A stretch of 29,568 bases of DNA, taken from a virus. Its lineage: Duplodnaviria > Heunggongvirae > Uroviricota > Caudoviricetes. Below, in pieces: positions 1-3,000 of the stretch. Each line of letters opens with the position of its first letter. Position 1 is the first letter of the stretch. The stretch lies in the IMG/VR virus record IMGVR_UViG_2537562190_000016; one strand, 5' to 3'. A program made the position numbers.

Positions 1-3000
1 CTCGAAAATATGCAGCATGGCCGGACGCCCGGTGGGAAGTTCACGCGGGATCCGTTCCCATCGTCCACTCCCGGAGCGAGGAAAATCATCCTCACAGATA
101 TGGTACGCAACGGCACGGCCATATCGATCGACCTCCACCCCGGCCCGCAGAAAACGGTTCCCCATACCGTGTCCTGGCGTGTCCACCCGTTTCGGACTCA
201 CGGCTTTAAAACGCGTACGGAATAACTGCGTGGTTTCCGTATCCCAGACCGGCTGCACAAAGATTTCGCCGTTAAACGCATGAACGCCCACACCTTCACG
301 GATAAATTCCGTGAACGTGCGTTTTCCTTCCACGTCGATCTCGCCAGACATCCCTTCTGCGTATTCCGACCAGGCCGCCTCCACCTCATCGACAAAGCTT
401 TTTGCTGCGGTCTCCCGCATCCCCAGCCAGCGCCAGTTCGGACGGTAGCTGATCAGAAACATATGCCCGACAATGTGATCCTTATGCAGGGCCACCGCAT
501 TAGCCGCTATTCCGTTATTGCGCACCAGATCATCTGCCCGGGCATTCCCCAGACGCAACGCGGGCAGCAGGGCCGCATCGACACTCTGCGCCGGTGGCAA
601 CCACTCCGCCATTTGCCCGCCAAATCCTGCGCCGCCCCCGTTGTAGCTGAGACTCTCACGAAGCGGAACGCCGTTCACATCAATCAGGACAGGCGTTCGT
701 TTCATAACCTCACTCCCAGCGGACGACGGCGACGTCGGGTTGTCCCCAGTACCGACTCCGCATCATTGATCGCCCGGTTAAGCTCATCCAGAGAAGCCGC
801 CGTATATTCAATTCTGCGACCATCTTTCTGGACAGACACCACCCGTTTACCGGTTAATAAATCAAGGCGCGCCTGACGTAGCGCCTGTAGTTCAGCGACT
901 GTAACCATTCACTCCTCCGGACAGCTTCGCTGCCAGTTCTTTCAGGGTTGGCCGGGTCGTCTCTTCTTCCCGGGATTTTGCCAGTACAGCCAGATCAAGC
1001 TGCCAGCGTTGCACGGACACACGTAATGCCGCGTAGGCATACACCAGGCAGTCCAGCGCTTCGTTACGCCGCTTTTGTTATCCCACAGCAGACGCATCTT
1101 TCCTTTTTCCCACTTCTCCACAAGCTCTTCCGCCACCAGTTGCTGCGCCTCTGTCTGCGAAAAAATCTCCGGATCATCAGGAAAACGGATGGCATACGAC
1201 GTGGCTTCATCCGCAGGCGTGGGATCGGCTTTCATACGGGCATAGAGAATTTCTTTTGCGGTATCCGTTCCCACTTCACACAGATACACGCCCCGCTGAT
1301 TGCGGGTTTTTGGCATGGTGATCACCGGCTTGCCATAGACAGATGCGCCTTTTACCGGCAGCACCCGGAAAACACCGTGTTTTTTTGATCTCTGATAAAC
1401 AATTTCACCATCGATCCCCCCGGTGTCCCAGCAGACACGGGAAATAGTCATTTCGGTGCCATCCGCATGGCGGTATTTTTTGTTGATCGCCGCATCCACA
1501 CGTAACAGCGTCTCTTCCTCATCAGGACGCCCCATAATGATGATTTTATCCACCAGAAAGGCTTCCTCTCCCGGAGCCCATCCCCAGACATACATCTCAA
1601 AACGGTTTCGCTGCGAGTCAATGCCCGCCGTCAGATAAACCACCCGGGCAGGCACCGCCGCCGTGTAACGCACCACCTTATCCATCAGTACCTGGTGATC
1701 GAGTTTTTCGCCCACGGCCTCTTCCCAGGTCTCGCCCAGCGTGGTGTTCACAAAGGTTTTCAGGCCGTTGGGATCTTTCAGTGCATCCAGCCAGTCATAG
1801 ACAATCTGTACCCAGGTGGTGAACGGACTGTACGCCGTCCAGATATGGAACATGATGGAGCGCGGCGGCGGAATTTCATCACCCCGGGCGCTGAAAAACG
1901 TCAGACCGTCACGGGTCCACATGCCCGTGTTTTCACAGATCCACCGCCCGTTGCTCTGGTCAAGCTCAGACTGATGGATCACGCAGCCATGATGTTCACA
2001 GAGGTAGAAAACACTTTCAGGGCTGTCCTTCTCCCATTTAAGCCCAAAAGGCGTGGACTCATCGCCAAATTTCAGATACTGCTCCTCCCCACAGTGCGGG
2101 CAGGGCACATAAAAACGCATAAAATGCGCCGACTCGTTAGCGGCTTTTTCGATCTGGCAGGTGCCTTTGATTTTAGGCGTCGAGCCGCGAATGGATTTTG
2201 GCCACACCGACCCCTCAATACGCTTATCCCCCAGCAGGGTTGGCGAGCCCTCTTTTTCGACATCCGGCTCGAACGAGGAAAGTTCGTCATAGCAGACCAC
2301 GTCCACGGATTTTTCACGGTAGTTTTTGGCGGCAGCGCCGCCCAGGCACCAGAAACCGACGCCCGATGAAAAGCGTTTCAGCGTGAGAGTATTGTCACGA
2401 TGTTTACGACCCAGCCATGGGGAAAGGTCTTTCAGGCATGGCACGTTCCGAATCGTCGCCTCCACGTGAGACTTCATAAAATCTTCAGCGGCAGAATCCG
2501 TGGGCTGAAAAAGCAGACTGTTTCGGGATTTATGCTCAATAAAATACCCGACCACCCCCAGCAACATCTTTGTATAGCCAACACGGGCAGATTTAATCAG
2601 GTTAACCGTGCGAACCTGGTCGTTACCCATACAGTTCATAATGGCGATCTGGAATGGCAGCGTTTTCCATTCTCCCTCACCATATGAAGATTCTTTAGGC
2701 AGATAATAATTTTGATCAGCCCATTCAACTGCCGTCATTGGTACAACCCTGACCAGAGGCTGCAGCGCAACCGAAACGGCAGCCATCATATTATTCAGTT
2801 GTTGCTCTGATATATTCATCGAGTAAATCCGGTAATTTATCCCCTGCCCGCGCACACTGATTTGCCCCCTTCGCAATAAGGGTTTTCAGATGGTCAAGAT
2901 GGCGCGGTGTTAAATCAGGAAACTGTCGCTGCATGGATAAAGGGATGGAATCAAGCGTACTGGATAACGCCATTGCCAGCTTACTGAGGGCAAAAATACA

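Follow-up and report, generated by a model that had tools for sequence, protein, structure and literature searches.

Our analysis of a 29,568-nt stretch of DNA that holds a lambdoid prophage (the whole stretch hereafter termed the window) reveals that the prophage gene for the terminase large subunit is one A short in a homopolymer run, and suggests that the missing A is an error in the deposited draft sequence (probability roughly 0.6). The deficit is of exactly one homopolymer base, in an allele private to a single draft assembly, and in every other respect the gene matches an intact counterpart perfectly. From these sequence comparisons, we infer that the cause of the missing A is technical rather than biological.

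Packaging operon and terminase large-subunit gene

The prophage in the window lies beside ybhC, on the side of the lambda attachment site, in a background common to O103, O121, and O45 Shiga-toxin-type E. coli; the window itself contains no Shiga toxin genes. Among syntenic copies, the best match is the prophage of E. coli 2015C-3163 (locus L003; 99.9% identity), whose terminase gene is intact at 1929 bp and which shares with the window an IS3-family insertion located between kil and gam. Related complete genomes each carry 2–5 near-identical copies of the packaging module. The late region carries cargo genes encoding a SASA-family (NanS-p-like) carbohydrate esterase (window 6429–8279) and an lpxR-like lipid A deacylase (window 10915–11874), the latter placed between the Q antiterminator and nin regions.

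The gene order of the packaging operon is Nu1–A–W–portal (B), and the end of A overlaps the start of W (892 versus 908) in the restored frame only. The features of the operon are as follows:

892..2819, minus strand: terminase large-subunit gene (phage 21 gp2 / lambda gpA type), 1928 nt versus 1929 nt in the intact gene
942..2819, minus strand: frame as written, 625 aa, comprising authentic residues 1–582 and a 43-aa out-of-frame tail, with the stop at 942–944
1073..1076, minus strand: homopolymer with the one-base deficit, A4 on the coding strand (T4 on the plus strand) versus A5 in all relatives, from alignments with E. coli 2011C-4251, phage 21, and lambda and from the list of differences from the 2015C-3163 locus
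892..1072, minus strand: out-of-frame 3′ segment, which encodes the authentic C-terminal 60 residues and has no further lesion
702..908, minus strand: head–tail joining gene W, the start of which overlaps the restored terminase end by 17 nt, as in intact relatives (protein identical to WP_000259002.1)
1..705, minus strand: 5′ part of the portal gene, truncated where the source contig ends (base 1 of the window is base 1 of the contig)
2791..3300, minus strand: intact terminase small-subunit gene (Nu1-type; PF07471), with a protein identical to that of the 2015C-3163 locus

As deposited, the large-subunit gene is read from a true ATG at 2819, inside a minus-strand ORF that spans 942..2876. The terminal residues of this ORF are ...KMRLLWDNKSGVTKRWTAWCMPTRHYVCPCNAGSLIWLYWQNPGKKRRPGQP; its tail, ending at the same stop at 942, is also given as ...EKGKMRLLWDNKSGVTKRWTAWCMPTRHYVCPCNAGSLIWLYWQNPGKKRRPGQP, and the residues ...LLWDNK precede the loss of frame. 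A second minus-strand frame, at 892..1044, encodes ...YAYAALRVSVQRWQLDLAVLAKSREEETTRPTLKELAAKLSGGVNGYSR*. The coding strand at the run reads GAT AAC AAA AGC GGC, and addition of a single A yields GAT AAC AAA AAG CGG CGT AAC GAA GCG CTG GAC TGC, which encodes ...DNKKRRNEALDCLVYAYAALRVSVQRWQLDL... and restores a protein of 642 aa with a stop at 892–894, so that the end of its gene overlaps W, which starts at 908. Specifically, the frame breaks after K582 (codons 582–583), and 60 authentic residues (583–642) are exchanged for 43 unrelated residues.

These results bear out most of what the first-pass annotation had described. In particular, the sequence and the presence of A5 in relatives confirm the gene, the site, and the direction of the one-base homopolymer frameshift that replaces the terminase C-terminus; the stop reported at 942 and the unrelated tail before it are present, and the restored A5 reading ends where it had been placed, near 892 and overlapping W. 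The T4 run had been put at about 1074..1077; the run exists, but its true coordinates are 1073..1076, one base to the left. The C-terminus of lambda gpA, which had been given as KKRRNEALDCFVYALAALRISISRWQLDL, has an exact match in NC_001416.

In protein sequence, the restored product is 100% identical to the intact terminase (WP_001300274.1) encoded by the syntenic E. coli 2015C-3163 prophage. Alignment to gpA-family terminases, which the earlier annotation had proposed as a check, shows 92% identity with phage 21 gp2 and 66% identity with lambda gpA; over the last 60 residues, the restored protein and phage 21 gp2 are identical. The likeness to gpA is not due to chance, since A5 is found at this site in phage 21, in lambda, and in the closest E. 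coli prophages. The window thus resembles phage 21 and lambda, whose gp2 and gpA are the large terminase subunits (TerL) of cos-packaging lambdoid phages, in having the Nu1–A–W–B order and the GpA_ATPase plus GpA_nuclease architecture, and differs from them in that a base is missing from the A5 run of its gene and its product is without the authentic last 60 residues.

In Pfam searches, the N-terminal GpA_ATPase domain (PF05876) comprises residues 48–293 (191.8 bits versus a cutoff of 25.6). The match to GpA_nuclease (PF20454) ends at residue 584 in the protein as written (profile position 268 of 294; 208.5 bits), versus residue 601 in the intact relative and the restored reading (profile position 286 of 294; 241.2 bits). 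The out-of-frame segment at 892..1072 encodes the end of the nuclease domain, a conserved helix, and a portal-binding tail (function as described in PMC9026076 and PMC4856287). The helix and the portal (prohead)-binding tail are absent from the frame-0 product and are present in the restored reading only, where they are the same as in phage 21 gp2. No secondary decay is found in the terminase gene: neither the 60 codons downstream of the run nor the overlap with W is damaged.

Distribution of the A4 allele

The first-pass annotation had set a homopolymer sequencing or assembly error beside a real inactivating lesion; both explanations are apt, and the distribution of the allele is among the evidence that leans to the error. 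In alignments, the run is A5 in both reference phages (21 and lambda) and in the closest E. coli prophages. An 80-mer centered on the run has no 100% match at 2,967 places in 1,855 complete E. coli genomes, the best places all being one gap away, and a 39-mer containing A4 has 0 exact matches in IMG/VR, GTDB species representatives (one genome per species), and JGI metagenome contigs. Intact relatives with the same shorter C-terminus, which had been named as an observation that would speak against a lesion, were not found: A4 is present in 0 of the 2,967 copies in complete E. coli genomes.

The only record of the exact 625-aa frameshifted protein is in an NCBI WGS draft, GCA_000215225.2, on contig AEZT02000002.1 (237,608 bp). 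Window positions 1–5819 are the exact end of this contig (the reverse complement of locus L004), and the frameshift is located 1,073 nt (~1.07 kb) from the contig end, inside a multi-copy prophage module. Draft assemblies typically break in repeated modules, and the consensus is least reliable there.

A search of 5.8 billion protein clusters with the 43-aa out-of-frame tail and the eight residues upstream of it returned one match, a 68-aa ORF from GCA_008122335.1 that returns to the correct frame after 40 residues. In GCA_008122335.1, a 5.47-Mb single-contig assembly, the entire terminase–portal region is split into small ORFs. The locus (L010; VIFQ01000001.1, 1890496–1896702) has 41 indel columns in 5.8 kb when aligned with an intact reference, almost all of them one-base homopolymer deletions, and the deletions include the same GATAACAAAAAGC run, indicating that this A5 run is demonstrably under-called by sequencing. 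The sole other occurrence of A4 at this site is thus a demonstrable sequencing artefact, and A4 is present in no high-quality genome. The gene calls made on such fragments in GCA_008122335.1 give rise to spurious peptides in protein databases. The window resembles this unpolished assembly in having a single-base deficit, private to one assembly, in the same run, and differs from it in that the assembly of the window has far fewer such differences (3–4 in 29.5 kb).

The most likely technical origin is an A5 homopolymer that was under-called and/or a poor consensus near a contig end that was built across a multi-copy prophage module. The living strain would then carry an intact 642-aa terminase of the phage 21 type, with ATPase, nuclease, conserved helix, and portal-binding tail, in a normal Nu1–A–W–B packaging operon of a lambdoid prophage beside ybhC.

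Other differences from the syntenic locus

Over a colinear block of 22,189 nt, 8 substitutions and 2 one-base indels separate the window from the 2015C-3163 locus, and each of the indels falls in a homopolymer. All four length differences between the two, including two in an additional IS fragment described below, are of ±1 base in homopolymers. Besides the change from A5 to A4 in the terminase gene, they comprise a change from A8 to A9 at 10891–10899 (A9 in 1 of 620 complete genomes, FORC_042, and A8 in 619), a change from T6 to T5 at 22450 (no match among about 22,600 IS copies), and a change from A4 to A3 at 22482 (common to 26 records). The A9 run is positioned 16 nt upstream of the ATG of the lpxR-like gene, just before a GGAAG ribosome-binding sequence.

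The eight substitutions are of three kinds. Those at 7675 and 7734 are found in other prophage copies too. Those at 6132, 6961, and 19261 are private when compared with complete genomes; two of them are non-synonymous (6961, S440L in the SASA-family esterase; 19261, T54P in a hypothetical protein encoded at 19102–19971), and the changes at 6132 (intergenic) and 19261 each lengthen a neighboring C-run. Those at 879, 888, and 1122 lie beside the frameshift and are all synonymous, and the variant at 1122 is common to phage 21. The first 1,122 nt of the window hold 4 of the 10 differences in the colinear block (binomial p of about 0.001). The adjacency of three synonymous changes to the frameshift suggests that the last kilobase before the contig end may be a slightly different allele of the module, acquired through recombination or through entry of the assembler into a paralogous copy.

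Some of the remaining sequence weighs against a technical explanation. The right-hand 6.7 kb of the window has 0 differences from the 2015C-3163 locus, and the 3.2 kb beyond the window has no indels, its flank being 100% identical to complete genomes; the assembly is therefore not generally sloppy. In the 3.2-kb extension, ybhC and ybhJ are intact, in what is too little sequence to inform on homopolymer frameshifts in core genes. The contrast between shared substitutions and private indels works only partly, because the substitutions at 6132, 6961, and 19261 are also private, and these substitutions imply that the strain may simply have private real changes. Privateness alone cannot tell an error from a mutation.

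The additional IS fragment is a 639-bp segment at 22190–22828 that corresponds to the orfA-side half of an IS3-family (IS629-like) element and that directly abuts, in the same orientation, the end of the full IS copy (about 20880–22189). Relative to the full copy, it has 3 substitutions and two one-base homopolymer deletions, one of which (T6 to T5; A6 to A5 on the coding strand) falls in the region annotated for the programmed frameshift of the transposase and creates a fused ORF of 203 aa (22161–22772, minus strand). The fragment is present in 0 of 34 syntenic complete genomes, and may have arisen by nested or partial duplication of the IS or by misassembly of an IS that occurs in several copies. 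Genomes with two IS copies in the prophage were considered as the source of this structure and were rejected, the second copy in those genomes being inside exo.

Consequences of a possible real lesion and its likelihood

The main alternative, which from the sequence evidence we place at somewhat under even odds, is a genuine slippage mutation, recent and private to the strain, that inactivates the large terminase subunit encoded by the prophage itself. The frameshift is present in the deposited sequence, homopolymers are natural slippage hot spots, and a lysogen exerts no selection on the packaging genes of its resident prophage, which are free to decay. The prophage already bears an IS insertion, the rest of the window is largely clean, and private substitutions occur in the window too. 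A different lesion of the same terminase gene exists in the near-identical prophage of a close relative, E. coli 2011C-4251 (locus L001; NZ_CP027388.1, a complete genome), namely a 14-bp deletion at the equivalent of window 1874–1887, which PGAP labels 'frameshifted' and which is accompanied by an intact A5 run.

We nevertheless favor an error in the draft sequence over a real mutation, because the allele is private to one draft assembly; because the site lies near a contig end, in a repeated module, and in a cluster of differences; because all length differences are of single homopolymer bases, with two others private or nearly so; because there is no secondary decay; and because the same run is miscalled in GCA_008122335.1. 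The same points weigh against a real mutation: A4 is in no other genome, virome, or metagenome searched, other private one-base homopolymer length changes accompany it, the one further instance of this tail is plainly an artefact of sequencing, and, with no secondary decay, the lesion would have to be very young. The observed change, of one homopolymer base and private to one assembly, has the form expected of an artefact; a lesion common to related strains or further decay, as expected of a pseudogene, was not found, the allele being private and the restored protein being 100% identical to WP_001300274.1.

If the mutation were real, the product would keep the ATPase domain and most of the nuclease domain (residues 1–582), consistent with the shorter Pfam nuclease match (ending at residue 584 rather than 601, with 208 rather than 241 bits). 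It would lack the last part of the nuclease domain as well as the conserved helix and the portal-binding tail, and would be unable to dock on the prohead and probably also to cut cos correctly. In work from the Feiss laboratory, the C-terminal domain of lambda TerL comprises, in this order, the endonuclease center, a conserved helix, and a portal-binding tether (PMC9026076). The amber mutant Aam42, in which the last five residues of lambda gpA are lost, yields a terminase that nicks cos, does not bind proheads, and supports a very low virus yield (PMC4856287, which also cites the C-terminal gpA prohead-binding mutants of Sippy & Feiss 1992 and Yeo & Feiss 1995). Taken together, the Aam42 phenotype and the domain layout imply that replacement of 60 residues would inactivate packaging, and probably accurate cos cleavage too. 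The lesion in the window is like Aam42 in the loss of the C-terminal portal-binding tether of TerL, and, if real, no portal docking would be expected. It is unlike Aam42, which removes 5 residues and leaves nicking intact, in that it removes 60 residues, including the conserved helix and the nuclease end, and adds a 43-aa nonsense tail.

The first-pass annotation had stated that such a prophage would be unable to package DNA. For the prophage alone this holds if the lesion is real, but it is too strong as a general statement, because terminase acts in trans, as in a coinfection control (PMC4856287), and because related strains carry 2–5 near-identical copies of the module. A prophage with a real lesion would need the terminase of a co-resident prophage for its packaging. 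There is precedent for this: prophage Sp4 of E. coli O157 Sakai, which is without an intact terminase, is still packaged, most likely by the enzyme of the co-resident prophage Sp14 (PMC2669165). The window and Sp4 have in common a lambdoid prophage, a Shiga-toxin-type E. coli background, several near-identical packaging modules, and a defect that can be complemented in trans. They differ in that the defect in Sp4 is an IS insertion in nu1 in a finished genome, and that in the window is a single-base homopolymer deficit on one draft contig.

A more elaborate form of the real-mutation reading is improbable: in addition to the deletion being real, the tail-less TerL could join Nu1 on cos, and the prophage could be a satellite-like passenger that is packaged only by a co-resident terminase and that might interfere dominantly with it.

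Finally, a functional A4 allele, with full-length terminase made by programmed −1 ribosomal frameshifting or transcriptional slippage, finds its sole support in the intact downstream frame and the location of the shift within an A-run, and can be set aside, since the frame-0 context GAU AAC AAA AGC contains no X XXY YYZ slippery heptamer, tRNA-Lys slipping by −1 from AAA would re-pair with CAA, a run of only four As is far too short for efficient polymerase slippage, and the two-frame arrangement is not conserved (0 of 2,967 copies in complete E. coli genomes; a single frame with A5 in lambda and phage 21).

On either of the two leading explanations the finding is ordinary: a probable draft consensus error or a routine strain-private pseudogenizing indel. 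If the missing A is a draft error, as we favor, the consequence is for annotation only, and the gene is to be read as an intact phage-21-type terminase; the case would also caution against trust in draft contig ends that fall within multi-copy prophage modules. If the missing A is real, it would be one more strain-private inactivating lesion in a lambdoid prophage of Shiga-toxin-type E. coli, the phenotype of which co-resident prophages can mask; such decay of lambdoid prophages has long been documented in enterohaemorrhagic E. coli. The difference between the two bears only on the self-mobilization of a prophage that carries an lpxR-like gene and a SASA/NanS-type esterase.
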